This document shows positions 20,665 through 62,885 of a stretch of DNA of 64,000 nt, one piece after another (position 1 is the first letter of the stretch; every line of letters starts with the position of its first letter). Location of the stretch: positions 3,519-67,518 of the forward strand of contig CAZSFZ010000001.1 of the NCBI GenBank assembly GCA_964606385.1, in the 5' to 3' direction. The DNA comes from an uncultured bacterium (lineage in GTDB: Bacteria > Omnitrophota > Omnitrophia > Omnitrophales > Aquincolibacteriaceae). A model generated the notes under the pieces. It searched no databases. It was not told where the DNA came from and saw only the letters and a list, made by a program, of their open reading frames with translations. A program made the position numbers and the translations under genes.

Positions 20665-20671
20665 AGAACCC

Positions 20672-21874: not shown

Positions 21875-21880
21875 CGGATC

Positions 21881-26585: not shown

Positions 26586-26597
26586 GCGCGACGGCCT

Positions 26598-27338: not shown

Positions 27339-27350
27339 AACGCTCCTTTT

Positions 27351-27581
27351 TTAAATAACCGATTTTGGCATAAAGATCTGAAAAGTGATGAGCAGGGAAA
27401 TGATCGAGGTCGCTTCCGCAAAGAGCAACATCAGGATCACGCCCAGATAGATCTTGGGCGCCGCCGAGGGGTTCCGGCCTAGTGCCTTAATACTGGCCGC
27501 TCCCACGACCGCAATCACGATCGAAGGGCCGACCACCGCGATGAACATGGCTATCAGGACCGCGACATTCTGTTGGTTCAT
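27351..27581 (-). CDS. atpE: F-type ATPase c subunit (proteolipid)
   Basis: 76 aa, two-TM hairpin with polar loop GRNPSAAPK and carboxylate E in helix 2 (LLFAEATSIISL). Confidence 0.75.
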   Translation of the reverse strand: MNQQNVAVLIAMFIAVVGPSIVIAVVGAASIKALGRNPSAAPKIYLGVILMLLFAEATSIISLLITFQIFMPKSVI

Positions 27582-27597
27582 AGGACCTTTCCTTTTT

Positions 27598-27876
27598 TTA
27601 GATATCCCACGATTCTTTCATGCCTTTAAAACTCGTGTCGACCTCCACGATCATGTAACAGCGGTTCTCGCGGAAGCTTACGACCCCCAGCCGGATCGGG
27701 ATGCTCGGATGATCGGCGATCTTAATGTCGCCTTCCACCAGCGTCGACACCAGCGGGTGGTGAAAAGCCAAAAGTTCGAACTCCCCTTCCTCGCTGGCCA
27801 AATAGACCGATTCGACCATATCATCAAATACCAAGCCCTGCAAACTTAAGACTTGCAGCTGGAACTTTGGCTTCAT
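27598..27876 (-). CDS. atpC: F-type ATPase epsilon subunit, beta-sandwich domain only (no C-terminal helical hairpin)
   Basis: 92 aa. FELLAFHHPLVSTLVEGDIKI matches epsilon G.E.GILPGH.PLLT.L..G. Confidence 0.6.
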   Translation of the reverse strand: MKPKFQLQVLSLQGLVFDDMVESVYLASEEGEFELLAFHHPLVSTLVEGDIKIADHPSIPIRLGVVSFRENRCYMIVEVDTSFKGMKESWDI

Positions 27877-27885
27877 GCGCGGCCG

Positions 27886-29396: not shown

Positions 29397-30797
29397 TTAT
29401 TCCTTAGCTTCGGTTTGATCCGTTTTTTCGTTCTTTTCATCTTGAGGCTTCGGAGCCGCCGCCTGCGGCGGAGGCGCTTTTTTTCTTTCCTGAAAACGGC
29501 TTTCTTGGAGCTTTTTAAGCCAGGTCACATAAAAAATGGTGCTGACGATCCCGAGGAACAGCACGATCCCGAAAATGATCCACCACGTCATCGGTGTGTC
29601 CGGTTCCAAACCGACGGAGATCAACACGGCGTCTTTGACTTCGGTAAGCTGCTTCACCCAGTATTTGATCCGGGTCAAAAAGTCCTTCGCGTTCTCTTTT
29701 CGAAGCCCCAGTTCCGGCAAAAGCTGCTGGAGGTCATGGAGTTTCCCTTTCACCACGTTCATTTTCTGCTGGTTCAGCACATAGGCCTTCATGCGTTCTT
29801 CGAGCGAAGTGGAGCCGGCCACTTCTCCCTGAAGCTGCACGATCTCGTCCAGCATCCTCATGATCGCGTCCATCTGCTCCTTGGCAAATTTCAGATACGG
29901 TGTATCCTCAAAAAACTTGTAGAGATTCGTGGTCTGCTCTTTGTAATAGTTGATATCCTGTTCGGGAATACGCCAGATATCCTTGAGCACGATGGTGTAT
30001 TTCTTGTTCTGCTTGGCGTCAAACATCTCCTTTTTTTCCAGAAAATACACTTTCCGGGATTCGTCATAGAGGATATTGAACCCCTGCCGGTCGATCACAT
30101 CCTCCGCCTTGATGTCTTTCGGCAAAAGGGAGCTGATGGTGATTTCTTTGGGTTCGGTAGCGGGGTTTTCCGCCTCGATCACAAAACGGGCTTCCTGGAC
30201 GCCTTTCTTCTTCTCGTCTTCAAGCCGGCGCATCGCCTCAAGCGAAAAAGCGTTGTTCTGGATCTCTTCCAGCTGTTTCATATGCGCCCGGTAAAGCTCG
30301 ATATGCTGGTTGATCGCCAGCTGCTGGTTCTGCTCCTCAACGATCCGATCCAGGCTCTCCTGGGCTTTTTCATAGAGGAGCTTTCCGGTCTCAGCGTATT
30401 TGGTTTCCTTCAGACCATTGATCTGCTCTTCGAGGTTCTTTTTAACACTATCAATAGTCTCAGGGTCGATCTTCCAGACATCGCGAACCCGGAGTTCAAA
30501 CGTGAGGGTCTCCTTCGGTTGGAGCTCGACCTCTTTGGTGAGGTAATAAGTCTTTTTCTTGGTATCGTACTGGACCTCCAGCCCCGCTTTATCCAGGATA
30601 TCCTTTGTCGGATCGATCTCGGGCGGGAGTCCCTGGGTCACAACGGTCTTGAGGGCCTGCGTCTCGGAAGGATTGACGGCCAGGATCTTGATCCTGACGT
30701 CATCGGCGGCCTGAACGAAACCGGTCCAAGACAGAAAAAGCGCGGCAGACACACACGCTAACTTCCAGCCCGGAACTCTCTTTTTCCGCGTGTTCAC
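29397..30797 (-). CDS. Exported coiled-coil protein with internal duplication and C-terminal TM anchor plus Pro/Lys-rich tail; unknown function
   Basis: GTG start with RBS AGAGAGG. Signal peptide. Two similar ~150-aa modules (ILAVNPSETQ... / VIEAENPATEP...). TM WWIIFGIVLFLGIVSTIFYVTWL near the C-terminus. Confidence 0.55.
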   Translation of the reverse strand: MNTRKKRVPGWKLACVSAALFLSWTGFVQAADDVRIKILAVNPSETQALKTVVTQGLPPEIDPTKDILDKAGLEVQYDTKKKTYYLTKEVELQPKETLTFELRVRDVWKIDPETIDSVKKNLEEQINGLKETKYAETGKLLYEKAQESLDRIVEEQNQQLAINQHIELYRAHMKQLEEIQNNAFSLEAMRRLEDEKKKGVQEARFVIEAENPATEPKEITISSLLPKDIKAEDVIDRQGFNILYDESRKVYFLEKKEMFDAKQNKKYTIVLKDIWRIPEQDINYYKEQTTNLYKFFEDTPYLKFAKEQMDAIMRMLDEIVQLQGEVAGSTSLEERMKAYVLNQQKMNVVKGKLHDLQQLLPELGLRKENAKDFLTRIKYWVKQLTEVKDAVLISVGLEPDTPMTWWIIFGIVLFLGIVSTIFYVTWLKKLQESRFQERKKAPPPQAAAPKPQDEKNEKTDQTEAKE

Positions 30798-51800: not shown

Positions 51801-52374
51801 CCGAGTCCGAAATGATGGCGCCCGCACGCTCGATCCAGCTGTTGATCAAATAAGCATTCGATTCAAAGCTCAGCTCGGAACGGACCGTGTATTCGCCGAC
51901 CAGAATGCTGAACGAGTCCGAAGTCGCGGAAATGATGCCGCTGTCCGAGGCCTGAAGCGTGTACAGCTCTCCGGCCTTGTCAATATTGAGCCCCTTCCCC
52001 GAAAAATCCGCGACGCCCGCCACCGCGTCCATCGAGACCGTTCCCCGCAGAGTGCCGCCGGTAGGATTATTAAGAATGGCGAGAGTGATCGTATCCGTCG
52101 CATCCGTCACCACATTGTTGTTAATATCGAGGATCTGAACGACGGGGGCCGGATCAAAGGTCTGACCTGCGGCCGTGGACTGGGGCTGGGTGGAAAAATA
52201 AAGTTTATAAGCCGTCGCGGCGGCACTGCCCTCCACCGAACTGGACCCGTCATAACTTCCGCCCGTGTAGATCGCGGCCTGGGCCGGGATGGAACCGAAC
52301 ACAAAAAAGAGAATGGAAAGCAAGGCGATCAGCCTGGAACCTCGGACCTTATTTAAAACAGAGGGGGCGTTCAT
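30862..52374 (-). CDS. Giant (7,170 aa) secreted repeat protein: signal peptide and Ig-like N-terminal region, about 500 tandem 13-residue GVNW repeats, helical C-terminal ~200 aa
   Basis: Single uninterrupted 21.5-kb ORF. ATG overlaps the upstream stop (ATGA). Signal peptide MNAPSVLNKVRGSRLIALLSILFFVFGSIPAQA. Repeat consensus [LM]S[KR][AT]GVNW[STLA][DG][LMI][NDG][VA], e.g. LSKAGVNWSDLNVMSRAGVNWLDMGVLSKAGVNWSGIDALSK. Confidence 0.85.
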   Translation of the reverse strand: MNAPSVLNKVRGSRLIALLSILFFVFGSIPAQAAIYTGGSYDGSSSVEGSAAATAYKLYFSTQPQSTAAGQTFDPAPVVQILDINNNVVTDATDTITLAILNNPTGGTLRGTVSMDAVAGVADFSGKGLNIDKAGELYTLQASDSGIISATSDSFSILVGEYTVRSELSFESNAYLINSWIERAGAIISDSGFSSGHISITVYDKNWDAVTAPGAATIKNNSVFRQSWTPPTNSDTYVADVTITYKGNDYSSRFAYNTAIQGGIAGAVSTLGSIDTKTTDIKAKTDLMNWDDIQAIKTAVGANSAETLYKRTGDILIAVAKANWDDLKIMSEARVNWNDLAEMSSKGMNWEDVRTLTRAGIRWSEIMQFSTSNINFQDLAQLTTSGVNWSDIGRLAKAGINWEDIGALSAVGVNWSDLSKLSKANVNWSGIEALSVGGVNWSGIQALSASGVNWLDVGKMAGIGINWTDLQVMAQAGVNWADIQRMSRAGANWDDFAKMTGAKVNWSETINWDNLAALTKANVNWTDMRVMSTANVNWDGLNALSVSGVNWTDFGVLSKAGVNWSDFGVLSKAGVNWSDLDLLSAAGVNWSGMQALAASQVNWTDLNVLSKAGVNWEDLNVLSRTGVNWSDLNALSRAGVNWSGMDALSKAGVNWTDLNVLSRAGVNWTDLQVISRMGVNWTGIDALSKAGVNWTGIDVMSKAGVNWNGMDVLSKAGVNWIDLNVLSKAGINWSDLQNLSVTGINWADLNVMSRAGMNWLDIGALSKAGVNWSGVDVISRAGVNWTDLQVLSRANVNWSDINALSQAGVNWTGIDVMSRAGVNWLDMGVLSKTGVNWNGMQALAAAGVNWVDFGLLSKTGLNWQDLNVLSRTGVNWSGIQALSAAGVNWLDIGALSKAGMNWSGLDALSKAGVNWTDLNVFSRAGINWSGVDALSKSGVNWSDLNVLSRIGINWSGMDALSRAGINWTDMGVLSNQGVNWTGIDVLSKAGVNWTDLNVFSKAGVNWTGIQAFSTAGVNWLDMEVLSKQGVNWSGMNALSRAGVNWTDINVLSKAGVNWSGIEALSRSGVNWSGIQALSRAGVNWIGIDVLSRAGVNWSGVQALSAAGVNWTDINVLSKAGVNWVGIDALSKSEVNWADLNVLSKAGINWTGINALSRGGVNWAGIQALAVAGVNWSGIDAMSKAGVNWTDVGALSKAGVNWSGVDALSEAGVNWTDLNVMSKAGVNWTGINVLSRAGVNWLDVGMLSAAGVNWADLNVMSKAGVNWSVMGTMSKAGINWTDFNVLSKAGVNWSDLNVLSRANLNWTDLQVMSKAGVNWSGIDALSRGGVNWTDLNVLSKAGVNWLDVGAMSKAGVNWTDLNVLSKTGVNWTDLQTMSRAGVNWLDMGALSKAGVNWSGIDVLSKAGVNWEDLNVLSRTGVNWTDLQVITKTGINWSDIGVLSKAGMNWTGIDALSRSGVNWSGMQALAAAGVNWSGMDALSRSGVNWSDLNVLSKAGVNWQDLNALSTAAVNWSDLNVLTRAGLNWTDLNVMLKTGINWLDMGVLSKAGVNWSGIDILSKSGVNWADLNVLSKTGVNWTDLQAMSRAGVNWTGMDVLFKAGVNWTDLNVLTRAGINWSDMNVMTKAGVNWLDMGALSAAGVNWTGIDALSRGGVNWTDFNVLSKAGVNWSGMDVLSKAGVNWTDLNVLTRTGVNWTDLNVMSRTGVNWADLNVLSKTGVNWTGIDALSKAGVNWLDMGALSKAGVNWSDLDVLSKTGVNWTDLNVMTRAGVNWLDMGAMSKAGVNWSDMNVLSRTGVNWSGMDALSKAGVNWLDMGVLSKAGVNWSGIDVLSKAGVNWADLNVMSKAGVNWIDIGTLSKAGLNWADMNVMSRAGVNWADMNALSRAGLNWSGLNVMSRAGINWGGIQALAAAGVNWSDLDVLSKTGVNWADLNAMSRAGVNWLDLEVFSKAAINWSDMNVLTRAGVNWSDLNVMSKAGVNWLDMGTLSKAGVNWSGIDVLSKTGVNWTDLNVMSKAGVNWADMGVLSKAGVNWSDMNVLTRTGVNWTDLQVMSRAGVNWTGLDALSRSGVNWADLDVLSKAGVNWADLNALSRAGVNWSDLSVFSKAGLNWSGIDVFSKAGVNWTDLNVMSRAGVNWSGIDVLSKAGVNWSDMNVLSRTGINWSDLNVMSKAGVNWLDMGVLSKAGVNWSGVDALSRSGVNWADLNVMSKAGVNWTGIDALSRSGVNWADLNVLSRTGVNWADLNVMSRAGVNWADMDVLSKAGVNWSGIDVLSKAGVNWTDLNVMSKAGVNWADMGVLSKAGVNWSGMDALSRSGVNWADMNVMSKAGVNWSGIDVLSRSGVNWTDLNVLSRTGVNWSDLNVMSKAGVNWLDMGVLSKAGVNWSGIDVLSKAGVNWADMNVLSKAGVNWSGIDVLSKAGVNWSDLNVLSRTGVNWADLQAMSRAGVNWSDLDVFSKAGVNWSGIQALSVGGVNWSDLNVMSKAGVNWSDLNVLSKTGVNWSDMNVLTRTGVNWADLNVMTRAGVNWSDMGVMSKAGVNWSDMNVLTRTGVNWTDLNVMSLAGVNWTGIDVLSKAGVNWTDMNVLTRTGVNWADMNVMSKAGVNWSDMGVLSKAGVNWSGIDVLSKAGVNWSDLNIMSKAGVNWLDMGAMSKAGVNWSDMNVLTRAGVNWTDLNVMSRAGVNWSDMNVLSRMGVNWNGLDVLSKAGVNWSDMNVMSRAGVNWSGIDVLSKAGINWTDMNVLTRTGVNWADMNVMSKAGVNWSDMGTLSKAGVNWDGIQALSVGGVNWSDLNVMSKAGTNWLDLGAMSKAGVNWSDLNVLSRTGVNWSGLNALSTAGVNWLDMGVLSKAGVNWSGIDVLSKAGINWSDFNVMSRAGVNWADLNVLSKTGVNWADMNALTLAGVNWSDLNVMTRAGVNWADMNVLSKAGVNWSGIDALSRSGVNWADMNVLSRTGVNWSGIDVLSKAGVNWADMNVLSRTGVNWADMNVMSKAGVNWLDLGALSKAGVNWSGIDVLSKAGVNWTDLNVMSKAGVNWADMGVMSKAGVNWSDLNVLSRTGVNWSDFNVMSRAGVNWLDMGVLSKAGVNWNGIQALSLGGVNWSGIDALSRAGVNWLDMGVMSKAGVNWSDLDVLSRTGVNWSDFNVMSRAGVNWADMGTLSKAGVNWSGIDVLSKSGVNWADFNVMSKAGVNWNGLQALSVGGVNWAGIDVMSKAGINWSDMNVMSRAGVNWSDFNVLSKAGVNWSDMNVLTRAGVNWSDLNVMSKAGVNWSDMGVLSKAGVNWSGIDALSKGGVNWSDLNVMSRAGVNWADMSAMSQAAVNWSDFNALTRAGVNWSDMNVMSRAGVNWLDMGVLSKAGVNWSGIDALSKGGVNWADLNIMSKAGVNWLDMGAMSKAGVNWSDLNVLTRTGVNWADLNVMSRAGVNWLDMGVLSKAGVNWSGIDALSKGGVNWADLNIMSKAGVNWSGLQALSVGGVNWSGIDVLSKAGVNWTDLNVMSKAGVNWADMGVMSKAGVNWSDLNVLSRTGVNWSDFNVMSRAGVNWLDMGVLSKAGVNWNGIQALSLGGVNWSGIDALSRAGVNWLDMGVMSKAGVNWSDLDVLSRTGVNWSDFNVMSRAGVNWADMGTLSKAGVNWSGIDVLSKAGVNWADLNVMSKAGVNWADMGVLSKAGVNWSGMDVLSKAGVNWTDMNVLTRAGVNWADMGVLSRAAVNWEDWNALSRTGINWSDLNVMSRAGVNWLDMGVLSKAGVNWSGMDVLSKAGVNWMDMNVMSRAGVNWSDMGVLSKAGVNWSGIDALSKGGVNWSDMNVMSRAGVNWLDMSAMSKAAVNWSDLNVLSRTGVNWSDLNVMSRAGVNWLDMGTMSKAGVNWADFDVLSKAGVNWSGLNVMSRAGVNWDGIQALSVGGVNWSGIDALSRASVNWSDLDVMSKAGVNWSDMNVMSRAGVNWSDLNVLSRTGVNWSDFNVMSRAGVNWLDMGVLSKAGVNWAGIDVLSKAGVNWADLNVFSRAGVNWADMGVMSKAGVNWSDMNILTRTGVNWSDMNVMTRAGVNWLDMGVLSKAGVNWSGIDALSKGGVNWSDLNIMSKAGINWLDMSVLTSASVNWADLNVLSRTGVNWSDFNVMSRAGVNWLDMGVLSKAGVNWSGIDALSRGGVNWSGIDALSKAGVNWLDMGTMSRAGVNWAGIDALSRGGVNWADLNVMSKAGVNWSDMNVLTRAGINWSDLDVLSKTGVNWSDFNVMSRAGVNWLDMGVLSKAGVNWSGIDALSRGQVNWSGMNALSRAGVNWNGIQALSVGGVNWSDLDVLSKAGVNWSDLNVMSKAGVNWLDMGTMSKAGVNWADFDVLSKAGVNWSGMNALSRAGVNWSDMNVMSRAGVNWSDLDVLSKTGVNWSDFNVMSRAGVNWLDMGVLSKAGVNWSGIDALSKGGVNWSDLNALSKAGVNWLDMGVMSRAAVNWTDWNVLTRAGVNWSDLNKMTRAGVNWLDMGVLSQAGVNWSGIDALSRGGVNWLDMGVLSKAGVNWNGIQALSVGGVNWSDLNVLSKTGVNWTDLNVMTKAGVNWLDMGALSKAGVNWSGIDALSKGGVNWLDMQVLSRAGVNWSGVQALSVGGVNWSDLNVMSKAGVNWLDMGEMSKAGVNWSGMSVLSQSDVNWSGLQALSSGGVNWLDIGIMSKAGVNWSGIDALSRGGVNWLDVGTLSKAGVNWSNLDVMSKAGVNWSDMNVLTRAGVNWSDLNTMTKAGVNWLDMGVLSKAGVNWSGIDALSRGGVNWTDLNVMSRAGVNWLDMEAFSKAGVNWNGIQALSVGGVNWSDLNVMSKTGVNWLDMSVMSKAGVNWSGIDALSRGGVNWLDLNVMSKAGVNWLDMGTMSKAGVNWSGIDALSRGGVNWEGMQALSLGGVNWLDMGVMSKAGVNWSGIQALSAGGVNWSGIQALSLGGVNWLDIGEMSKAGVNWSGLDVISRTNINWSDLNVLTRAGVNWMDLSALTRANVNWSGLDVISRTNINWSDLNVMTRAGVNWLDMGTMSKAGVNWSGIDALSRGGVNWEGMQALSRGGVNWLDMGVMSKAGVNWSGLDVISRTNINWSDLNVMTRAGVNWLDMGAMSKANVNWSGLDVISRTNINWSDLNVMSRAGVNWLDIGAFSKAGVNWNGMQALSESGVNWTDLNVMSRVGMNWSGIQALSRGGVNWDDLNVMSRAGVNWLDMGALSKAGVNWSGIQALSRGGVNWDDLNVMSKAGVNWLDMGALSKAGVNWNGMQALSRGGVNWDDLNVMSRAGVNWQDMGVFSKAGVNWAALNELTRANINWADLNVMTTGVNWLDLGVMSKAGVNWNGIQALSRGGVNWDDLNTMSKAGVNWLDMGTLSKAGVNWNGIQALSRGGVNWDDLNVMSRAGVNWLDMGTLSKAGVNWNGIQALSIGGVNWSDLNVMSQAGVNWLDLRAMTIANVNWAALNELTRTNVNWSDLNVMTSGVNWLAMGLLTQSGVNWTDINVMSRAGVNWEDFTALSTSNVNWEGFNVMSRAGVNWSGIQALSVGGVNWMDLDVMSRAGVNWLDMGALSKAGVNWSGIQTLSAGGVNWDDLNVMSRAGVNWLDMGALSKAGVNWNGIQALSVGGVNWTDLNVMSRAGVNWLDMGIMSKTGVNWSGIDALSRSGVNWSGIDVMSRAGVNWLDMGALSKAGINWSGIDVLSRTSVNWLDLGEMSKAGVNWLSMGALSIAGINWSDLNVMSRVGMNWLDMGALTKAGVNWLDMGALSKAGVNWAEFNRMAAANVNWSDFSTMTREGINWGSIGSLSKAGVNWEEFNRMSAAGVNWDNLGSMTQAGVNWLDMGALTKAGVNWAGLDAISRTSVNWDDMRAMTRAGVNWLSIGTLSTAGVNWAEFNRMSAAGLNWDDFGVMTRAGVNWLDMGSLSKSGVNWGGMDALSRAGVNWLDMGALTQAGVNWAGLNAISRTSINWNDLNVMTRAGVNWTNMGDMTTAGVNWIALNNIIGSDVNWSGLNAITRAGINWIDFGTMTRAGVNWDGLETISKTNVNWNDLNVMTRAGVNWLDIGALTDAGINWSGINTISRTGINWNDLRVMTRSGINWVDMGALTAAGVNWEGFNAISRTNINWDDLHVMTRAGVNWLDMGALSKAGVNWAEFNRMAQANVNWSDFGVMTRAGVNWFNIEALSKAGVNWAEFDRMAKANVNWNDMGVMSRAGVNWLDMRALTTAGVNWSEFNRMAAANINWSDFGVMTRAGVNWLNIEALSKAGVNWAEFDRMSSARINWEDMGRMSRSGVNWNNIDALSRAGVNWAEFDRMAKAQVNWNDIGVMSRGGVNWSGIDALSRAGVNWLDMGVLSRTGVNWTGFDVLSKAGVNWADLRVITREGINWSDFQVMTRAGINWADMGRFTAAGVNWSGIDALSRSGVNWSNLRELSTARVNWTDLQAMTSARVNWNEFNRMSDSRVNWADLGFMTRAGVNWSNLDLLARANVNWAGMNEITKARVNWVDFAKMASSNISWTNLATMSQAAINWSGINMITQAGVDWDNLANMSSAGVNWSGINVLSRAGVDWNGIRSLSVAGVNWSDFSVMSKVNVNWQDMQLMSAAGVNWLGINAMSRGQVNWAGMKTISESDVNWADLGVFSKAGVNWLDMGVMSRVGVNWADMRVISRTGVNWADFGVMTKAGTNWFDMSTLSKAGVNWTGIRALSVGGVNWADLNTMTRAGVNWLDMGALSKAGVNWAGLDALSRSRINWTGIRELSMGGVNWQDIGRLSTAGVNWQDVEVLTKTGVNWSDLNSLTQARVNWLDLGALSKAGVNWTDINVLSRTGVNWGDFNALSRAGINWNDLRALSRTGINWTEMDVLSKAGVNWEGLTALSLAGVNWQALQDLSAKGVNWNSIAAMSDANVNWSNLTVMTTAGVNWSDIRTLSVTGIDWNDLKTMTDAGVNWNGIRALSEGGVNWDEIAVLSEAGVNWDDISRLSVAGINWTDMNALTEAGINWEDLSVMTGGVSWQGLATQTKAGINWQGIADLSTGDVNWSGMKAISNKEQTIADIDSSTYTIMNTVKELDEVIGKRNGQPTITDRMAEFESLLEQVQQATSAISKESSDAGKKTEELVNRLVTLANDQAKALGFVGDEIKKVMKGGESNLNLMQGKLEEVKAYILAVKEATDASAREKLGQQAEEPKAIVKSWLEFGGEK
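31345..51510 (-). repeat. About 20-kb array of degenerate 39-nt tandem repeats (encoding the 13-aa GVNW unit), with a 117-nt (3x13 aa) super-period in places
   Basis: The plus strand shows ccagttcac (reverse complement GTGAACTGG = VNW) recurring every 39 nt from ~31.35 kb to ~51.5 kb. The units are diverged at the nucleotide level. Confidence 0.85.
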
Positions 52375-54014
52375 GACGCGGTCCTCGCAAGCCGGCCGCC
52401 ATAATCCTTGACCCGGGTGGCATCCGTCGTTCCGGCCTTATAGCGGTTGGACATTTCCATGTACGCCGTGGCCGTTTCGGACCAGCCCCCGCCCCGAAGC
52501 CCCGAACCGCCGGCACCGGTCACGCCGCGAGCCGTGCTGGTCGCATCCAACCCCGGCCAGTCAAGGTTCGTGGCATTTCCTTCATAAGAACTTGTGGCCG
52601 TCAAAACACCATCGCCATGCGTGCCGCTAAAACCCCGTCCCGCCGCATTGCCGAGCGTGACCGCGCGTTCCCACACATTGCCGGACAATTCCATATTTCC
52701 GTAATAACCCGCCGCGGAGCCGGCGCGCGTCGTGGTGGAAGCCGCCGCGAAGATCCCCGCGCGAAGCGGCCCGCGATTCGGCCCGTCGCCTCCGGTCATG
52801 TTGGTATTACTGAAATTCACCGTCGCATTGGAGGTGCTGCAGGTTTCCGTTCCGTCTTCCGCGCCACCGCTGACTACAGCACAGACCGTTGCGGAGGTCC
52901 CGCCCCAGGCATAAGCCGAAGTCGTCGGATAATCGGATCCCCGGGCCATTTTTTCGTATTCAAGTTCCGAAAACGGCCTCAAGGCCGCCCAGTCCGCGTA
53001 AGCGGCAACATCCATCCAGGAAAGATAGCCGCAAGCACGGTCGGACCGGTCCGTTGTGGCATCGCCGCTTGTCCAGGCGATCGTATTGCGATCCACCACG
53101 GAGTCGCTGTTTTTCCCCGAAGCCGCAGTGATGTCGCGCGTTGCTTTTTGCGCCGCCGTAAGCGTGTTGAAAAAAGCGATCCACTGCCCTTCGGTGATCT
53201 CATATTTCATGGCATAGAAAGCCGCGTAGCCTTTCGGGAACGCCGCGCTCACCTCAAAAGAGGCGCCGCTCGAGGCGTCATTCGCACCGCTGTCCGTGTT
53301 GTAATACCACTGGGAAGCTCCGGTCCCGAAGGAAAGCCCCGCTTCGCTGTTGATCGCGCCCGGCAAACTTGTCGCACTTCCCCCGAATTCCATTTCGCCG
53401 TTCGTCCCGCTGTTCCCGTCCCCCGCGTAGAAACCTCCTTGCGGGATATAGACCATTTCGACCGCGAAAACCCGGATGAGTGTGTTCGCGCCGCTCGCGT
53501 TCGCATCACTGACGCCATCCTGACCGTAGTCCCAGAGAAGCTGAATGCTGGTCGTGGACAAGGACCCGCTTCCCTGCGCGGAACGCTGGATGAAGCATCC
53601 TTTTTTGTCAGCCGGAACGAGAATGTCAATCGCTGTCCCGGAGCCGCGCGAAAAACCCGTAGGATTCAGCCCGGCTGTTTTAAGTGTGGCATGGTTCCAG
53701 GTGGATCCGGAATCCGTGGAGTATTTGACGAAGAGCCAGGCCGCGTCATAATTCGCGGCATCCCGCCAGGAATTATCCCAAGAGATATTGTATTGGACTT
53801 TGATCGTGTTCGCCGTGGAATCCTGCTCGACAAGTGAAGCGCTGGAAACGGCAAGATTATTCGCGAATGAAGAAATCGGAAAGGAGAGGAAGAAGAGGAA
53901 GACGCCCTGAGCAAGCTTCCATCCGATTTTCCTGTCTAACTCCTTGTAGCAAAAGCGACTACAAGCACCTAAATGCCGTAAAAAGGTTTTGAGCATAAAC
54001 TCCACTTGTCTCAA
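52371..54014 (-). CDS. FGE-sulfatase (SUMF1/GldJ/GldK-type) domain protein with ~200-aa N-terminal extension and signal/anchor
   Basis: C-terminal domain motifs YAMKYEITEGQW, ELEYEKMARGSDYP, GNVWERAV, LRGGGWSE match the FGE fold. Hydrophobic N-terminal segment LAQGVFLFFLSFPISSFA. Its stop overlaps the giant-gene start. Confidence 0.7.
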   Translation of the reverse strand: MRQVEFMLKTFLRHLGACSRFCYKELDRKIGWKLAQGVFLFFLSFPISSFANNLAVSSASLVEQDSTANTIKVQYNISWDNSWRDAANYDAAWLFVKYSTDSGSTWNHATLKTAGLNPTGFSRGSGTAIDILVPADKKGCFIQRSAQGSGSLSTTSIQLLWDYGQDGVSDANASGANTLIRVFAVEMVYIPQGGFYAGDGNSGTNGEMEFGGSATSLPGAINSEAGLSFGTGASQWYYNTDSGANDASSGASFEVSAAFPKGYAAFYAMKYEITEGQWIAFFNTLTAAQKATRDITAASGKNSDSVVDRNTIAWTSGDATTDRSDRACGYLSWMDVAAYADWAALRPFSELEYEKMARGSDYPTTSAYAWGGTSATVCAVVSGGAEDGTETCSTSNATVNFSNTNMTGGDGPNRGPLRAGIFAAASTTTRAGSAAGYYGNMELSGNVWERAVTLGNAAGRGFSGTHGDGVLTATSSYEGNATNLDWPGLDATSTARGVTGAGGSGLRGGGWSETATAYMEMSNRYKAGTTDATRVKDYGGRLARTAS

Positions 54015-54291
54015 TGTTGCGCATCATGGGCGACTAATGCGTTACTGCTAATTCTTCGATGCGTGACTGAGTTTTTAACTTAACCTCAACTGGCTCACTA
54101 GGTTACATAATAATTATAGCATGAATTTTGCATAGGTATAGGGGAAATGGACATATTTCTTCTATAAAGGTAAGGGGGAAAAACGAGCCTTTTACGATGA
54201 ATGAAACTTTTCGAATTCAGTGAAAAAGCGAGGAAGTTTTAAATTAAACGCGGAATTTCACTTTATTTGCAAGTCAAATGAAATGAATGAC
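54015..54291 (-). promoter_or_regulatory. AT-rich intergenic region: candidate promoter/leader for the FGE-giant-ATPase-T2SS array
   Basis: A 277-nt drop in GC between the TPR gene stop (54292) and the FGE start (54014). This is the only sizeable non-coding gap on the minus strand between 58.5 kb and 16.3 kb. Confidence 0.3.
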
Positions 54292-55203
54292 TTACGGCTC
54301 CTTTTGAAGCTCCTCAAAGTCCTTTTTGAGAGGCTCATCGGGCCCGATGCGGGACAGTTGGTTGAGATCCCAAAGGCGGATCCGGATCTTCCGGGCTTCT
54401 TCGCTGGGCGGCTTGAGATTTAAATAATACTGATAGTACTTCCTTGCCTCCTCCTGATTCGCAAGGTGATAGTCATAAATGATCGCCAGATTGTGATACG
54501 CCCATGACAGTTTTGGATTCAAATTCAGCGCATTCTTATATTGAGCGATCGCGTCCTCATAACGGCCGAGGTCATAATAAATATTCCCAAGGTCGAAATA
54601 GGTGCCCACCAGCTGGTCTTTGAGATTGAGGTTCTCCGAATTAACGCCCGCGACCGCATTGACCGAGCCCTTGACGGATTCCTCGTTCTTTTTCGCGACA
54701 TCCAGAATGCGGCTCCGTTCCGGCTCGAGCACGGACTGGTTCAAAAGGCCTTTTAATTTTTCGTTGGTCTCGCTGAGTTCCTGGTTCTTCGCCGCGAGTT
54801 CCTGCTGCTTGATCGCGGACTCGAGACCGCCGCCCTCGGCCTGTGAAGGTTCCTGGCGGGACGCGTCCAGCTCGTTCTTTAAGGCGGCCGCGTTGGGCGT
54901 CCGTGCGTACCCCCCGCCCTGCGCGCGCAAAGCGAGGTCGTCCCTCTCCGTTTTGAGCTTCTCGTAAGAATCCTGAAGGTCGCGCATGTTCTGCCGCACA
55001 CGGCGATTTTCTTTTAGCGTTTCATTTAGCGTATACAGTATTTTTTCGACGTTCTGTCCCTCAGGCGTCGCGGGCGCGGCAGCTTCCGGTTTGGGATCTT
55101 TTTCATCCGCCGCGAGGGCCACAAACGGAATCACTCCAAGGGAGAAAACCAAAGCGATCAATATAAGTAGAAAAAATTTCGTGCAGGAAAAAACCTTATT
55201 CAT
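54292..55203 (-). CDS. Exported coiled-coil/TPR protein (possible PilF/pilotin-like secretin accessory)
   Basis: Signal peptide. Long heptad region. C-terminal TPRs (GNIYYDLGRYEDAIAQYKNALNLNPKLSWAYHNLAIIY). Its start overlaps the secretin stop. Confidence 0.45.
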   Translation of the reverse strand: MNKVFSCTKFFLLILIALVFSLGVIPFVALAADEKDPKPEAAAPATPEGQNVEKILYTLNETLKENRRVRQNMRDLQDSYEKLKTERDDLALRAQGGGYARTPNAAALKNELDASRQEPSQAEGGGLESAIKQQELAAKNQELSETNEKLKGLLNQSVLEPERSRILDVAKKNEESVKGSVNAVAGVNSENLNLKDQLVGTYFDLGNIYYDLGRYEDAIAQYKNALNLNPKLSWAYHNLAIIYDYHLANQEEARKYYQYYLNLKPPSEEARKIRIRLWDLNQLSRIGPDEPLKKDFEELQKEP

Positions 55204-56945
55204 TGCTGCGCCCTTTTGATGTCCGGGATCTTTTGCATCATCGCCGCGGATCCGTCCATCCTCCCCGATGAATACAAAACGCGATCCCCCTCGCGTTTGG
55301 CCGCGAGGTCATACGCCCCGATCCCCAGCATGCTCATCGAATTGACCGGCGCGGTCCGCGCGGATTGCGAAGTCGGATTCCGTGTCTTGATCGGGATCGG
55401 TTTGTCGAGATACTCCTCTTCGCCGGTCACGATGCGCGGAGTAATAATAACCGCGATCTCGGTTTTTTTGTAGCTTTCATTGCGCGCCTTGAACATATGG
55501 CCCAGCACAGGGATATCCATCAAATAGGGAAGCCCCTGATTTTTGATGGTCTGCTCGTCACGGATGAGCCCGCCCAGGATCACGGAATTCCCGTCCTGAA
55601 CGATCACGGTGGATTCCACGAAGGTCGTATTGACTTTCGGGATCACGTTGTTGGTGGGAGTCACCAATTCGCCGATCTGGCTCGAGATCTCCGGACGGAT
55701 CTTCATCGTCACAAAACCCTTGTCGTTAATGACCGGCGTCACCACCAGCACAAGCCCGATATCGATAAACCGGATATCTTCGCTCACGGACACGTTATTC
55801 CCGGTCCCGGTCGAGGTGGTCACCACATACGGGATCCGGTCCCCGATATTGATCTTCGCCTCTTCGCGGTCGAGGATCATGACCCTCGGATTCGCGAGCA
55901 ACTTCGTGTCCTCAACTTCCTTGACCGCCTGGAGCTGCGCCGCGATCTCGTTGGTCGAAAAATTCCCGATCATGATCTGCCCATACCTTCCAAGTGCGGA
56001 CGTGGTGTCGGCCATCGGGAAGGAACTGCTGACGCTGGAATTATCAAGCTGGCGAAACACTTTTTGCCAATCGATCCCCCAGCTGTATTTCGGGTTGAGC
56101 GTCAGCTGCAGGATCCGGGTCTCCACCATCACGGCGCGTGTCTGCCGGTCAAGCGCCTTGACCAGCCGAATCGCTTGGTCCATCCGTTCGGGATAAGCAG
56201 TGATCATGATCTGGTTTGACCGCGCGTCGGCCGACACGGTCCCGACGCCTTTTCCGTCGATCTGGGGTTTCAGCTGAGCCGCGACCTCCTCGGCTTTCGC
56301 GAACTGCAGCTTGACCACCTGGGTGTTCACATTGCTTTCCACCTGATTCAGAATCGTGTTCATCTGCATGAGTTTTTCAGGGATATCGATCATGACCACG
56401 GTCCCGGCGTCTTCATCGATGATCACCTTCCCGATCGCGCTCTGAACAGACTGCAGGGTCGCAAGCACATAGCTCGGCTTGGCCGTCTTGAGCGTGCGGA
56501 TCGAGACTTTTTTGTTGTCGTTGAAATTTTTCCCGTGCGTGAGCCCGTACTCATCTTCGGTCATGATGTAGATGATGCCGTTCCGGATCTCATAGGCAAG
56601 CTGGTTGGAGATCACCAGAATATCCAAAGCGTCTTTGATCTTGACGTTTTTGAGAAGCAGCGTCGAACGCCCCTGGACGTTACGGCTCGTCACGACATTG
56701 AGTCCGCCCTGAACGGCGATAAATTTAAAGACATCAATGACGTTGATGTCGCGCAGATCGAGAAAGATCGTTTTCTCAAGTCCCGTCGAGGGATCTTTAG
56801 CCGTAGCCGCACCGGGCGCGGGCGCCGCGGGCTTCGGCAGCGGGTCTGCCGGGAAAGCGGCCGGCACAAGGGACAGACTGACCGTCATAACGACAGCCAG
56901 CATCAATCTGAAAAACCTGTAAAAGCCTTTTTGCTGTTCCATGGT
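55200..56945 (-). CDS. gspD: Secretin GspD/PilQ
   Basis: Start MEQQKGFYRFF... Signal peptide. N domains. C-terminal secretin signature NSVILGGLIRDE...GLPYLMDIPVLGHMFKA...TEIAVIITPRIV. Confidence 0.85.
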   Translation of the reverse strand, partial: TMEQQKGFYRFFRLMLAVVMTVSLSLVPAAFPADPLPKPAAPAPGAATAKDPSTGLEKTIFLDLRDINVIDVFKFIAVQGGLNVVTSRNVQGRSTLLLKNVKIKDALDILVISNQLAYEIRNGIIYIMTEDEYGLTHGKNFNDNKKVSIRTLKTAKPSYVLATLQSVQSAIGKVIIDEDAGTVVMIDIPEKLMQMNTILNQVESNVNTQVVKLQFAKAEEVAAQLKPQIDGKGVGTVSADARSNQIMITAYPERMDQAIRLVKALDRQTRAVMVETRILQLTLNPKYSWGIDWQKVFRQLDNSSVSSSFPMADTTSALGRYGQIMIGNFSTNEIAAQLQAVKEVEDTKLLANPRVMILDREEAKINIGDRIPYVVTTSTGTGNNVSVSEDIRFIDIGLVLVVTPVINDKGFVTMKIRPEISSQIGELVTPTNNVIPKVNTTFVESTVIVQDGNSVILGGLIRDEQTIKNQGLPYLMDIPVLGHMFKARNESYKKTEIAVIITPRIVTGEEEYLDKPIPIKTRNPTSQSARTAPVNSMSMLGIGAYDLAAKREGDRVLYSSGRMDGSAAMMQKIPDIKRAQQ

Positions 56946-56952
56946 TTTTTTC

Positions 56953-57630
56953 CTAACGCAGTTCAACCCGATCCTCGCCCAGCGAAAGCACCACATGTTC
57001 TTCGTTGATCTTCGCGACCTTCAAAAGCCCGATCGGATCTCCTTCCCGCAAGAACGTCGTGATCCCTTTTTGGACATCTTCGATCATGCAGTAAACCTTG
57101 CTTGGATCCGTCGGGTTGTAGGAGATCCCGGTCAGCTTCAAGGTTTTTGTCATCTCCACAAGTTTGGTCGATTGCTCTTTTTCGAGCTTCTGAGCTTCTT
57201 CCGCGCGCTTGCTGTACGGCATGAACATCTTGCCGAGGTCCCAACTTTCGACCGGCTCTGTTTCCTTTGCCATCTCGCTGACCGGCGGGGGTTCCAGCAT
57301 CTTCGGTTCCAAGGTCCCGATCGAACCCACGACGTCTTTTTGGAGACCCGCAACCCCGAGCAACAGATCCGCCATGAACACCAGCCCCAGCACGACCACC
57401 AGATAGCGAAGGATCCGGTTCAGTTCTTTAATGCCGAACGAGGACTTGATCCGTTCAAACAGCTCGGTCGAAGCGTTCAGGAACTTCTCGGCCCACAGCC
57501 TCGGATCGAACTGTCCCGCCTGCTGGACTTTCTTGGCTCCCGCCGCTATATCTTTTTGATAAGCGCTCGGTTCCTCGATCAGATCAAGAAGCCGCTTCTC
57601 CGGCGTTAATGAGGAATCTGGCTGAGCCAT
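56953..57630 (-). CDS. GspC/PilP-like inner-membrane secretin-interacting protein
   Basis: One TM (LRYLVVVLGLVFMADLLLGVAGL) after a cytoplasmic N-terminus. Periplasmic C-terminal beta domain. Sits between ExeA and the secretin. Confidence 0.4.
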   Translation of the reverse strand: MAQPDSSLTPEKRLLDLIEEPSAYQKDIAAGAKKVQQAGQFDPRLWAEKFLNASTELFERIKSSFGIKELNRILRYLVVVLGLVFMADLLLGVAGLQKDVVGSIGTLEPKMLEPPPVSEMAKETEPVESWDLGKMFMPYSKRAEEAQKLEKEQSTKLVEMTKTLKLTGISYNPTDPSKVYCMIEDVQKGITTFLREGDPIGLLKVAKINEEHVVLSLGEDRVELR

Positions 57631-58541
57631 CCGGCACGCATTTCCTCGGAAACGATCTCCTCAATGATCTCCTCATCCACGATCCATTTTCGTTTCATCA
57701 CGAGCTGTTTCAGGGCCCGGTGACACAGCATGGTGATCTTCCGAGGATATCCCTGCGAGATCTTGTGGAGCATTTCGATGGCGTCATCCTGGAAGAGCCG
57801 GACATTCGAGCAATAATTCGCCTGCCGGATGCGGAACTGTATCATTTCCCGGGTCTCCTCGAGGTTCAAAGGATTTAATGTGTATTTAAAACTGATCCGG
57901 TCCATGAAATTCTGGATCTTCATGATCTTGGAATGAAGTTCGAGCTGTCCAAAAAGGACCAACTGCAGGAGCTTCGTGTCGTTCGTTTCGTAGTTCAGGA
58001 TCACGCGAAGCATTTCCATGGACGCTTCCGTGAGCTTTTGCGCCTCGTCCACAATAAGCACCACGGTCTTGTTCCCGATCACGGTCTTTTCATAAAGGAA
58101 TTTTTCCACGGCCTCTTTGAGATCCATCACGCTCGGGCGGCTCCCCTCGCCGCGAAGGCCCGTATATTGGTCGACATTGATGGAAAAATTTCGGACCAGG
58201 GAATAAAGGAATTCGTATTCATTTTCGAAACAGGGATCCAGCACGTAATGGACGATGAAATCGCCGCGCTCGCGGAGGGATTGGATGAGCTTGCGCGACA
58301 AAGTGGTCTTTCCGGTCCCGACATCTCCCAATACCACGGAAAGGCCCCGCCGCAAACGGAGCTCAATGAGAACATTGGTCAGTGTGGCCTGGTGGCCCTG
58401 AGAGAGATAGAGGAATTCCGGGTCCGGGCTCGTCGAGAACGGCTCTTTTTCGAATCCCAGCATGCGATAGTAGCTCATGGATCTCCTCGTCTTGAACTTA
58501 AGCGCGTCCGAAGACAGTCCGCCTGAGGACTTTAGCGCCAA
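57606..58541 (-). CDS. gspA: ExeA/GspA-type AAA+ ATPase
   Basis: YYRMLGFEKEPFSTSPDPEFLYLSQGHQ plus Walker A GDVGTGKTTL and the VDEAQ box. Confidence 0.8.
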   Translation of the reverse strand: MALKSSGGLSSDALKFKTRRSMSYYRMLGFEKEPFSTSPDPEFLYLSQGHQATLTNVLIELRLRRGLSVVLGDVGTGKTTLSRKLIQSLRERGDFIVHYVLDPCFENEYEFLYSLVRNFSINVDQYTGLRGEGSRPSVMDLKEAVEKFLYEKTVIGNKTVVLIVDEAQKLTEASMEMLRVILNYETNDTKLLQLVLFGQLELHSKIMKIQNFMDRISFKYTLNPLNLEETREMIQFRIRQANYCSNVRLFQDDAIEMLHKISQGYPRKITMLCHRALKQLVMKRKWIVDEEIIEEIVSEEMRAGWLSQIPH

Positions 58542-60453: not shown

Positions 60454-60484
60454 CCCTCATGCCCTTAGGGCTAGGACCTGTCGT

Positions 60485-61027: not shown

Positions 61028-61031
61028 ACGC

Positions 61032-62236: not shown

Positions 62237-62242
62237 CGTACC

Positions 62243-62839: not shown

Positions 62840-62885
62840 ATGAACGATCCTCCTTGATGATCGGGTGGAGAAAAAGAACGCGCGT

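Follow-up and report, generated by a model that had tools for sequence, protein, structure and literature searches.

The FGE-like protein encoded on the minus strand of the window (the whole 64-kb stretch of DNA that was analysed) belongs to a large uncurated family that combines a signal peptide, a beta-sandwich and an FGE-type C-type-lectin domain, and it has lost the catalytic residues of the enzymes whose fold it shares. Its gene lies directly upstream of one for a giant repeat protein, and the pairing of the family with a neighbour that bears a short N-terminal motif appears to be undescribed. We propose, as a reading that we consider about evenly poised between right and wrong, that the protein serves as a lectin-fold head without catalytic function, docked to the N-terminus of a fibre, in a known Omnitrophota F-ATPase/type-4-pilus locus. 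The features discussed are collected in Table 1.

Table 1. Position of the FGE-like gene, its predicted parts and its neighbours in the window
Feature	Coordinates	Strand	Basis or content
FGE-like (C-type-lectin-fold) gene, 541 aa	52371..53996	minus	ORF, Pfam, AF2/Foldseek
Coupling junction, FGE-like/giant gene	52371..52386	minus	sequence
Predicted cleavable signal peptide, aa 1-45	53862..53996	minus	family alignment
Conserved N-terminal beta-sandwich, aa 46-~177, about 130 aa	53466..53861	minus	pLDDT >90
FGE-type C-type-lectin domain, aa ~178-541	52374..53465	minus	Pfam, alignment, Foldseek
DGR variable-region equivalent, aa ~500-532, between LRGG and GGRL	52401..52499	minus	ortholog comparison
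Giant partner protein, 7,170 aa	30862..52374	minus	sequence
YTGGSYDG motif, aa 36-43 of giant	52246..52269	minus	sequence
TPR protein	54292-55203	minus	upstream conserved gene
Secretin	55200-56996	minus	upstream conserved gene
GspC-like protein, 225 aa	56953-57630	minus	upstream conserved gene
AAA22/ExeA-like ATPase	57606-58541	minus	upstream conserved gene
466-aa protein, Omnitrophota-specific	29397..30797	minus	comparison of loci
F-type ATPase genes alpha, epsilon, c, b/delta, gamma, beta (this order)	24223..29388	minus	
T2SS/type-4a-pilus-like genes	17701..24226	minus	GspE/PilB, GspF, GspG, two pseudopilins, PilM/N

The longest form of the open reading frame starts at TTG 54014 (547 aa, minus strand, end at 52371), and the ATG at 53996 agrees with the database gene call P0001 and with the N-termini of the relatives P0024 and P0029. 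As the earlier note had claimed, the gene overlaps the start codon of the giant gene: its stop TGA (52373-52371) and the ATG (52374-52372) form ATGA, with GAGGA at 52386-52382, 7 nt 5' of that ATG. Overlapping stop and start together with an internal Shine-Dalgarno would favour matched amounts of both proteins. The 4-bp overlap is not general, however, since the gaps between FGE-like and partner genes in relatives are mostly 11-166 bp; a stop/start overlap is seen again in L084 and on the P0361 contig. On the other side, a 277-bp gap (53997-54291), in which no sigma-70-like promoter or terminator was found on the strand of the FGE-like gene, separates it from the TPR gene, the corresponding gap in relatives being 6 to about 320 bp. 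That it is the first gene of an operon is unproven, as it is immediately preceded on its own strand by the AAA22, GspC-like, secretin and TPR genes.

The FGE fold assigned in that note was borne out by a match to Pfam FGE-sulfatase (PF03781, E=3.2e-8, aa 258-537) and by an AF2 model (pLDDT 83.8, pTM 0.86) whose top Foldseek matches were solved FGEs (6s07, E=1e-5), at an identity of only 13-17%. The N-terminal extension described there exists as well, but it consists of a signal peptide and a beta-sandwich, and the supposed hydrophobic anchor is more likely cleaved off. A long basic n-region and an h-region are followed by S-F-A|N-N, in which A45 is invariant and N46 nearly so across the family alignment while the length varies upstream of them; residues 1-45 thus look like a cleavable Sec signal peptide. 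No lipobox cysteine or lipoprotein signal was found in the protein. The beta-sandwich corresponds to no Pfam family and is almost always fused to the FGE-like domain, which begins near aa 178 (VEMVYIPQGGFYAGDG) and contains a variable insert (aa 195-250).

There is no Cys in the last 150 residues, and the family consensus RGGxWxxTxxxxLxVSDRxxAAxxDxxRxxDYGGR aligns to GGSYM[C336]HRSY[C341]YRYR of human FGE without either cysteine; nor was a sulfatase gene found within the window. The missing catalytic pair and the lack of such a gene indicate that this FGE-fold protein is non-enzymatic and not a sulfatase-maturing enzyme.

The gene order AAA22, GspC-like, secretin, TPR, FGE-like (1-4 copies) and GVNW giant recurs in 19 Omnitrophota loci, several of which end before the first upstream genes; in the window the upstream block spans 54292..58541 (minus strand). 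The adjacency, which ties the protein functionally to the giant gene, is confirmed reciprocally, as FGE-like genes (50% and 55% identical) precede P0362 and P0363, each an independent homolog of the N-terminal part of the giant. The ATPase and a secretion/pilus machine share this conserved cluster, as the earlier note had seen, but the 'motor-like' ATPase is the Omnitrophota 'symbiotic' F-type ATPase, already described as adjoining type-4a pilus genes (Seymour et al. 2023, PMC10066038). No a subunit was found among its genes, and the adjoining GspE/PilB carries MshEN and a PilZ-like tail. Always downstream of the giant or partner gene lies the gene of a 466-aa protein with a signal peptide, two beta-rich modules, a coiled coil and a C-terminal TM helix, a candidate membrane anchor. 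The giant itself is composed of a signal peptide, an N-terminal motif, an Ig-like region, 511 repeats of 13 aa centred on NW (spacing exactly 13 aa in 499), a coiled-coil tail and a conserved C-terminal end (...IVKSWLEFGGEK); structure prediction of the repeat shaft gave no fold (pLDDT 33.7). The partner in L008 (2,433 aa, Ig-like) has no NW repeats, and shares the N-terminal motif, the C-terminal end (...VVQSWFEFK) and the adjacent 466-aa protein gene.

In the giant, the motif YTGGSYDG directly follows the predicted signal-peptide cleavage site AQA|AI, and more generally [FY]xGGxxDG sits at the mature N-terminus of the secreted protein downstream of a family gene. In its strict form ([FYW]xG[GS]xx[DKR]G, scored in the first 120 aa) the motif occurs in 39/68 downstream neighbours vs 3/575 other ORFs (Fisher p=3e-40), and motif-bearing neighbours come from Omnitrophota, Bacteroidota, Ignavibacteria, Verrucomicrobiota and Kiritimatiellia. 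Several family members are orphans that have no motif-bearing neighbour (L012, L020), and in L044, L034 and L051 the motif is repeated at domain boundaries, which would also suit a structural role in place of docking. Tandem family genes are as numerous as the motifs on the giant in 18 of 19 Omnitrophota loci (one of each in 4, two of each in 14; p=2.6e-4 for 1 vs >=2 genes against 1 vs 2 motifs), the mismatch being L024 with 4 genes and 2 motifs, and a NJ tree implies at least 3 independent copy-number changes. The 1:1 ratio is not universal, as the partners of a single family gene in Bacteroidota carry 7-8 repeats of the motif.

A further clue comes from the C-terminal ~30 residues, which are hypermutated by a diversity-generating retroelement (DGR) in the orthologs of L008 and L031. 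There, the final ~105-135 nt of the ortholog match a template repeat located downstream except at template adenines (14/14 differences in the L008 core alignment, 17/17 in L031), with an Avd gene in both loci and a reverse transcriptase in L008. DGRs were seen in only 2/80 loci, and neither a template repeat nor a reverse transcriptase was found in the 64-kb window. Family-wide, no other part of the core domain varies as much as the corresponding block, in contrast to the conserved beta-sandwich core; the hypermutation of this block points to a ligand-binding surface and not an active site.

We favour no catalysis, and picture the FGE-like protein as a Sec-exported dedicated partner of the giant. 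The two proteins would be co-produced and carried by Sec into the periplasm, where the beta-sandwich of the partner, conserved faces of its lectin domain, or both would dock onto [FY]xGGxxDG at the giant's mature N-terminus, one partner per motif, leaving the variable C-terminal surface outward as a putative ligand-binding site. The 13-aa-repeat protein would form a long shaft whose conserved coiled-coil C-terminus would fix it to the cell, perhaps via the 466-aa protein, and whose export or assembly would fall to the secretin and T2SS/type-4-pilus-like machine encoded alongside. The result would be a fibre that attaches to other cells by a lectin-like head.

Among the alternatives, we regard as unlikely, yet worth serious thought, a periplasmic maturase that has retained the peptide-binding groove of its ancestors and acts before export on the neighbour's [FY]xGGxxDG motif(s), modifying or processing them, each paralog being specific for one motif variant. 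The substrates of ancestral FGEs are short peptide motifs within unfolded proteins. Such a role would suit the 7-8 motifs per single gene in Bacteroidota, the two diverged motifs matched by two diverged paralog lineages in Omnitrophota, and the many invariant polar residues (R287, R303, R320, D335, E344, E346, E348, K349, R352, D462 and N477, with H460 nearly so). It is also favoured, as is a chaperone role, by the Bacteroidota family members, which have no T9SS sorting domain and may stay periplasmic, whereas their partner carries a C-terminal one. On the other hand, the Cu-binding Cys pair is absent with no alternative metal site identified, sequence entropy is raised family-wide where FGE has its active site, and it is this region that the DGRs of L008 and L031 hypermutate, in L008 in the sole copy upstream of a motif-bearing partner.

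A machine scaffold by analogy with GldJ/GldK/PorK, lying as a structural ring or track in the periplasm or at the secretin, seems distinctly improbable, although the fold, the place of the gene immediately behind those for the secretin and the TPR protein in a conserved cluster, and the relationship of the F-type ATPase to mycoplasma gliding ATPases (PMC10066038) speak for it. The gliding analogy with SprB and these proteins, raised in the earlier note, is not supported: the lipobox is missing, and the protein has no NCBIfam match even at E<=10, and hence none to GldJ/GldK/PorK models if they are part of that library. In addition, copy number tracks cargo motifs, and two orthologs are DGR-diversified, both of which are unexpected for a machine part.

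More improbable still is a lectin or chaperone for a glycosylated fibre, binding glycans that an STT3-type oligosaccharyltransferase would add to the giant's NW[ST] sequons. N-W-S/T is read in 265/511 repeats, the window encodes an STT3/PglB-like protein (12606-15161), several GT2 proteins and a PMT_2-like protein, and the fold is of C-type-lectin type. Yet S/T at +2 is thus found in only about half of the repeats, their -2 position is Gly and not the D/E that the bacterial PglB sequon needs, the family is found just as well beside partners devoid of NW repeats (L008, Bacteroidota), and the N-terminal motif and copy-number match are left unexplained. Finally, a genuine formylglycine-generating enzyme maturing sulfatases, as the PF03781 match and the JGI name of P0359 from the same 90%-identity cluster ('formylglycine-generating enzyme required for sulfatase activity') would have it, is already refuted by the cysteines missing from protein and consensus, and the absent sulfatase gene and the low identity to solved FGEs make it practically untenable.

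In Bacteroidota the family gene is separate and adjoins T9SS cargo, not the T9SS machine or gld/por genes, which also speaks against the analogy with GldJ/GldK/PorK. Among DGR targets no class is larger than the FGE-type C-type-lectin proteins, one of which, TvpA, has no FGE activity (PMC5758913, PMC6328139). It is these TvpA-like variable proteins that are the closest functional relatives of the FGE-like protein described here.

The FGE-like gene is on the minus strand and ends at 52371. Its longest form starts from a TTG at 54014 and encodes 547 aa; the ATG at 53996 gives a 541-aa product that equals the database gene call P0001 and is aligned with the N-termini of close relatives, and the gene was therefore taken as 52371-53996. 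Its TGA (52373-52371) overlaps the ATG (52374-52372) of the 7,170-aa ORF at 30862-52374, so that the ATGA overlap with the start of the giant gene, described in an earlier note on this DNA, is real; a GAGGA is found inside the FGE-like gene, 7 nt 5' of the giant's ATG. The same note had made it the first gene of the operon. This is not secure, since in Omnitrophota loci the gap between the TPR gene and the FGE-like gene ranges from 6 to ~320 bp. A scan of the 277-bp upstream gap of the window, limited for promoters to the sigma-70 type, placed neither a promoter nor a terminator on the strand of the gene.

The FGE-sulfatase fold itself was borne out, both by Pfam (PF03781, E=3.2e-8, aa 258-537, 34 bits versus a cut-off of 23.3) and by structural comparison. 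An AlphaFold2 model of the protein from 43 homologs (pLDDT 83.8, pTM 0.86) consists of a beta-sandwich at aa 46-~177 (pLDDT >90) and then the FGE-fold domain, and a Foldseek search of the PDB placed FGEs best (6s07, E=1e-5; target-normalised TM ~0.5), followed by EgtB and OvsA. The ~200-aa N-terminal extension reported previously contains a conserved beta-sandwich in the model, and it acquired no identity from the databases: it has no Pfam family, with only noise (Reelin subrepeat, Tli3) at E<=10, while Foldseek gave weak generic beta-sandwich matches only and BFVD nothing useful. The hydrophobic anchor that had been assigned to the same segment looks instead like a cleavable signal peptide. 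A long basic n-region and a hydrophobic core are followed by S-F-A/N-N (the slash marks the predicted cleavage site), the 'A-N-N' being invariant or nearly so family-wide after a segment of variable length, and there is no Cys at +1. This pattern would fit a cleaved Sec signal peptide and not a lipoprotein signal or a membrane anchor, and both the cleavage and the export route are to be taken as predicted.

The Cu-binding catalytic Cys pair of FGE (human C336, C341), which had been proposed as deciding between enzyme and scaffold, is absent from the protein and from the family consensus. There is no Cys in its last 150 residues, the family consensus in this region (RGGxWxxTxxxxLxVSDRxxAAxxDxxRxxDYGGRCxRTAP) has no C-x4-C pair, and a profile alignment to human FGE 2aft (C336S mutant) spans GGSYM[S]HRSY[C]YRYR with no Cys on the query side. 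A sulfatase gene nearby would have favoured ordinary sulfatase maturation, and no sulfatase (PF00884) occurred among the ORFs of at least 150 aa scanned across the 64-kb window. Because the Cys pair is absent and the scanned window ORFs include no sulfatase, a genuine FGE was rejected, and a true sulfatase-maturing enzyme can be excluded on these sequence grounds. The database names are very probably misleading or wrong for the window protein, which lacks the Cys pair: JGI calls P0359, a database protein of the same 90%-identity cluster, 'formylglycine-generating enzyme required for sulfatase activity', and NCBI calls relatives 'SUMF1/EgtB/PvdO family nonheme iron enzyme'.

The family is large. 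A word-indexed search returned >2,000 relatives. The best 120, all full-length, are 47-71% identical to the window protein (not counting P0001, which is identical), and the named ones among these are mostly labelled Omnitrophota/Omnitrophica. When one genome per species was scanned, at least 589 family loci were found, and full-length members at 37-43% identity extend the family to Bacteroidota (Kordia, Winogradskyella, Algibacter, Jiulongibacter and others), Verrucomicrobiota, Kiritimatiellia, Ignavibacteria and Bdellovibrionota. With the beta-sandwich alone as query, 1,900 50%-identity cluster representatives were matched, 1,092 of them at E<=1e-10. Full-length matches are mostly 480-620 aa with the domain N-terminal, shorter ones seem to be fragments, and 2-4 copies are present in a few proteins of 1,000-1,460 aa. 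Since the beta-sandwich is spread in a fixed N-terminal place and has no Pfam family, the two-domain unit of beta-sandwich and FGE-like domain is, judged by sequence, a fixed, widespread and uncurated architecture. Nine comparison loci (L003, L005, L006, L010, L014 and L016-L019) have the Omnitrophota-type order of secretin, TPR, FGE-like and GVNW giant genes under 'uncultured Planctomycetales/Planctomycetia bacterium' titles, and these labels are probably coarse or wrong.

Across several phyla the family shares a feature of the next gene. Downstream of the last FGE-like copy there is nearly always a gene for a signal-peptide protein, with the motif [FY]xG[GS]xxDG directly after the predicted cleavage site, as in the window giant (AQA before the site, AIYTGGSYDGSS after it) and the Kordia partner (AAQ before, FEGSNGDGF after). 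The strict motif was found within the first 120 aa of 39 of the 68 downstream neighbours versus 3 of 575 other ORFs of the same loci (Fisher p=3e-40), and a relaxed pattern in 55 of the 68. No solved relatives of the motif region were found. The partners of Bacteroidota and Ignavibacteria contain 7-8 repeats, each ~25-30 aa long and led by the motif, and they often end in a T9SS sorting domain; in Verrucomicrobiota and Kiritimatiellia the partner is 214-218 aa long with the motif at both ends. The co-occurrence with giant GVNW proteins, which had been suggested as a check, extends to 19 Omnitrophota loci with an FGE-like gene before a GVNW giant, and the reciprocal test agrees: in both cases an FGE-like gene (50% and 55% identity) comes before the gene for an independently retrieved database homolog of the N-terminal 330 aa of the giant (P0362, P0363), with a 4-bp overlap at one of the two junctions. 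In the Bacteroidota form of the module, seen in six Flavobacteriia loci (L038, L042, L047, L054, L064, L069) and in L044, the gene after the FGE-like one encodes 7-8 repeats of the type 'Y-x-G-S-N-G-D-G-F'. L038, L054 and L064 have a further small protein, ~265-275 aa long, behind the repeat protein, with a T9SS sorting domain where scanned (L038); divergent genes upstream of the module in L038 and L054 encode proteins of 245 aa and 641-644 aa that by eye resemble a LytTR-type response regulator and a TPR/histidine-kinase-like protein, and two 254-aa regulator-like genes are found upstream of the module in L044.

The number of FGE-like genes equals the number of motifs in 18 of the 19 Omnitrophota loci. 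One gene accompanies one motif in four of them (the window, L002, L007 and L016) and two genes accompany two motifs, 18-19 aa apart, in 14; L024 has four genes and two motifs. For one versus at least two genes against one versus two motifs, Fisher p=2.6e-4 over the 19 loci, a value inflated by their relatedness. A neighbour-joining tree has at least three independent changes of copy-number state: the window (one gene) is sister to L001 (two genes), L004 has its own duplication, and L016 (one gene) is basal to a two-copy group in which proximal and distal paralogs form separate clades. That copy number tracks motif number in these sequences is treated as suggestive, because relatedness inflates the p-value.

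Two other members of the family are targets of diversity-generating retroelements (DGRs). The family gene of L008 is located upstream of a partner gene whose 2,433-aa product has the same N-terminal motif. A copy of the 3'-terminal ~135 nt of this family gene, 88% identical, is present 0.9 kb downstream, all 14 mismatches of the core alignment fall at adenines of the downstream copy, and an Avd-like gene and a reverse transcriptase are found beside the repeat; in L031, 17 of 17 mismatches are adenine-specific and an Avd gene is present. By these hallmarks the two cassettes, from two Omnitrophota MAGs, are DGRs, and the FGE-like orthologs are their bona fide targets. In the database protein P0042 the Avd-type Pfam family PF05635 is part of the same product, which hints at a third case. 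The variable codons of L008 and L031 correspond to aa ~500-532 in the window protein, a stretch flanked by LRGG and GGRL, where family entropy is 1.6-2.1 bits versus 0.5-1.3 in the domain core; the beta-sandwich core is conserved (~1.0-1.3 bits). FGE-type C-type lectin (CLec) proteins are the largest class of DGR targets, and in TvpA, which has no FGE activity, the variable residues overlie the FGE active-site region (PMC5758913, PMC6328139). Hypermutation of the equivalent region in the orthologs argues for a putative ligand-binding face there and against a conserved active site. A DGR in the window itself was rejected: a BLAST search of the 3' 430 nt of the gene against the window gave short chance matches only and no template repeat (TR), and no reverse-transcriptase (RT) or Avd-type Pfam family was present among the ORFs scanned. 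Because the window has no TR, Avd or RT, its copy is not diversified.

The reading that we favour on this wholly computational evidence, and hold with about even confidence, is that the protein is a non-catalytic head, which would dock on the fibre's N-terminal motif via conserved surfaces and would present a variable lectin face. Its location at the tip and its ligand are putative. The main rival, a periplasmic maturase acting on the partner motif, would account for one gene serving many motif repeats in Bacteroidota and for the missing T9SS sorting signal on the family protein, but it conflicts with the DGR data and with the absent catalytic residues, and we consider it unlikely.

A survey in which six-frame ORFs of 80 loci were searched with the window proteins placed the FGE-like gene in a conserved neighbourhood. 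The 19 loci, window included, share the order AAA22/ExeA-like ATPase, GspC-like, secretin, TPR, FGE-like (1-4 tandem copies) and GVNW giant, several of them ending before the first upstream genes of this order. Downstream of the giant, the window and three further loci (L081-L083) have the 466-aa protein (40-58% identity to the window copy), F-ATPase alpha, epsilon (missing in L082), c, b/delta, gamma and beta, then GspE/PilB with an MshEN domain, GspF, GspG and pseudopilins, and finally PilMN where the locus reaches that far (window, L082). The beta stop overlaps the GspE/PilB start, the gene order being kept in L081-L083. No gene for an F-ATPase a subunit turned up in the window, nor within 10 kb in L081, L082 and L083, and the accessible parts of Seymour et al. 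2023 (PMC10066038) contain no discussion of such an absence that we could find. The 466-aa protein is always situated between the giant or partner gene and the F-ATPase alpha gene; it has no Pfam or NCBIfam match, and its 93 relatives occur only in Omnitrophota. The window GspE/PilB is extended at its C-terminus by ~200 aa that contain PilZ-like RxxxR and D/NxSxxG motifs; Pfam assigns a PilZ domain to the homolog in L082 and, faintly, to that in L083. Upstream of the cluster, on the same strand (58615-63997, minus), are genes for a GH77 4-alpha-glucanotransferase, a 180-aa protein, two TPM-domain proteins and LemA, as well as, at the edge of the window, a truncated outer-membrane transporter of the ShlB/FhaC (TpsB) type.

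The motor-like ATPase that had been noticed together with the giant is this F-type ATPase operon. Its genes are <10 kb from type-4a pilus (T4aP) genes, and 'symbiotic' F-type ATPase/type-4a pilus loci and giant ORFs are known in Omnitrophota from the available portions of two reports (PMC10066038; bioRxiv 10.1101/2023.11.21.568195); the window locus matches the 'symbiotic' loci of Seymour et al. 2023 (PMC10066038). A mark of such loci in that paper is an alpha subunit that clusters with Mycoplasma type-2/3 F1-like ATPases and not with respiratory AtpA. The window alpha subunit scores 535 bits with NCBIfam PRK13343 atpA (cut-off 554) versus 391 bits with MMOB1660 (cut-off 600), both below cut-off. 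Word searches of the accessible text of PMC10066038 and West-Roberts 2023 turned up neither the FGE-like gene nor the N-terminal motif nor the 466-aa protein, and those of a 2026 complete-genome Omnitrophota preprint did not turn up the FGE-like gene; no literature on the protein was found for Omnitrophota with formylglycine, ATP synthase and secretin, or F1-like ATPase and T2SS.

Kinship with GldJ/GldK/PorK, offered earlier by analogy with gliding systems, did not hold. The protein matches no NCBIfam family at E<=0.01 or at E<=10, and the NCBIfam library holds GldJ/GldK models. It has no lipobox, the h-region being followed by SFA/NN, and no T9SS/gliding core (gldLMN/porLMN, sprA) accompanies the gene; the window has a secretin, GspE/F/G, pseudopilins and PilMN. 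Membership was rejected for the absent lipobox and the lack of any NCBIfam match, and a machine scaffold of the GldJ/K/PorK type, despite the general likeness described below, is improbable.

The partner's two ends are conserved and its middle is not. NW-centred units number 511 in the window giant, and 499 of these are at exact 13-aa spacing (consensus S-[KR]-A-G-V-N-W-[SLAT]-[DG]-[LMI]-[NGD]-[VA]-[LM]). No Pfam family matched the repeat, and AlphaFold2 prediction of 260 aa of the giant, with 22 in-register segments of the giant itself as the alignment, gave short helices per repeat at pLDDT 33.7 and was uninterpretable. After the repeats comes a coiled-coil-like tail that ends in ...IVKSWLEFGGEK; the L081 and L083 giants end in ...VVQSWLEMAQ and ...IVKSWLELGEEQK, and the L008 partner, which has Ig-like domains and no NW repeats, in ...VVQSWFEFK. 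The sequence (V/I)V(K/Q)SW(L/F)E at the extreme C-terminus, which they share, comes after a coiled-coil tail with GVNW and Ig-like shafts alike and might serve for sorting or anchoring. The 466-aa protein is encoded next in the window, L008 and L081-L083. Since the N-terminal motif and C-terminal tail are conserved and the middle is variable, the partner architecture suggests a head-binding neck, a shaft and an anchor. The L081-L083 contigs each start inside the giant gene, and the database proteins P0361-P0364 are on contigs of 0.9-2.9 kb, which shows that assemblies break systematically inside the GVNW repeats; the GVNW giants are therefore under-counted and usually seen as fragments. As 265 repeats read N-W-S/T, an N-glycosylation-type sequon, a glycan-binding chaperone for an N-glycosylated fibre would rest on these sequons and the STT3-type transferase of the window, and it is improbable.

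Coordinates of features in the window and in the comparison loci
Feature	Position	Strand	Remarks
PMT_2-like gene	2611-4245	+	
GT2 genes	11150-12181; 1798-2499; 15003-15944 (+)		
STT3/PglB-like oligosaccharyltransferase	12606-15161		
GspE/PilB-type ATPase, 781 aa	21881-24226	-	N-terminal MshEN (c-di-GMP-binding) domain
F-type ATPase operon	24223-29388	-	unusual order alpha, epsilon (27598-27876), c (27351-27581), b/delta fusion, gamma, beta
466-aa protein	29397-30797	-	signal peptide, two similar beta-rich modules, long coiled coil, C-terminal TM helix
Conserved C-terminus of giant or partner	window 30862-31350; L008 ~16440-16493; L081 ~7660-7718; L083 ~3810-3869		
DGR cassettes, complete or partial	L008 5517-9179; L031 2464-4937		variable region (VR) at gene 3' end, Avd, TR; RT in L008

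The wider interpretation, which we offer tentatively and regard as doubtful, is a surface module of two components that spans phyla and has not been described before: its lectin-fold head (beta-sandwich and FGE-type CLec) would recognise an N-terminal [FY]xGGxGDG neck on fibres or surface proteins that are exported by unrelated systems, T2SS/T4P-like in Omnitrophota and T9SS in Bacteroidota. In Omnitrophota it would form the host- or prey-recognition tip of the giant-protein/'symbiotic' F-ATPase apparatus, reprogrammed by DGRs in some lineages, and, if so, would give these ultra-small bacteria an adaptable host range. Omnitrophota are uncultured, ultra-small and probably predatory or parasitic, and their giant ORFs and 'symbiotic' F-ATPase/pilus loci are known and mechanistically opaque. 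The FGE-like protein is small, foldable, expressible and genetically locked to the giant, and thus provides a handle on what the apparatus recognises, a handle that rests also on the apparent tracking of the giant's motifs by copy number and on the hypermutated predicted binding face of the orthologs. The work also flags a large uncurated family (~1,900 50%-identity clusters with the N-domain), some members of which are named as enzymes, and the same two-gene module in cultured Flavobacteriia (Kordia, Winogradskyella, Algibacter) makes it genetically testable.

Among known systems, Treponema denticola TvpA and Thermus aquaticus TaqVP ('category b', PMC5758913) have an FGE-subtype CLec fold without FGE chemistry and a variable ligand-binding surface in the C-terminal ~30-45 residues; the window protein has the same fold, with its VR equivalent at the extreme C-terminus by the L008 and L031 mapping. 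Some 'category b' targets have N-terminal extensions whose function is unknown (PMC5758913), whereas the window family has a fixed beta-sandwich and a motif-bearing partner gene, neither of which was found described in the accessible parts of PMC5758913 and PMC6328139. With FGE (SUMF1 and bacterial FGE) the window protein shares the overall fold and the core motifs (T/S)ELE(F/Y)EKxxRG and GNxWE, but at 13-17% identity it lacks the catalytic Cys pair and the sulfatase context, and has an extra beta-sandwich and inserts. Like GldJ/GldK/PorK, the lipoproteins of Bacteroidota gliding and T9SS, it is a non-enzymatic FGE-fold protein encoded with a surface secretion/motility apparatus and a very large surface protein; unlike them, it has no lipoprotein signal and its neighbours are T2SS/T4P-like genes, and in Bacteroidota its family is a separate gene next to T9SS cargo. 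Finally, the window resembles the Omnitrophota F-ATPase/T4aP and giant-ORF loci in that a non-respiratory-looking F-ATPase operon abuts T4aP/T2SS-like genes and the giant ORF is also flanked by secretion genes, but its giant is of a 7,170-aa, 13-aa-repeat type, compared with the >30,000-aa SecA-domain/transmembrane type emphasised in PMC10066038 and bioRxiv 10.1101/2023.11.21.568195.
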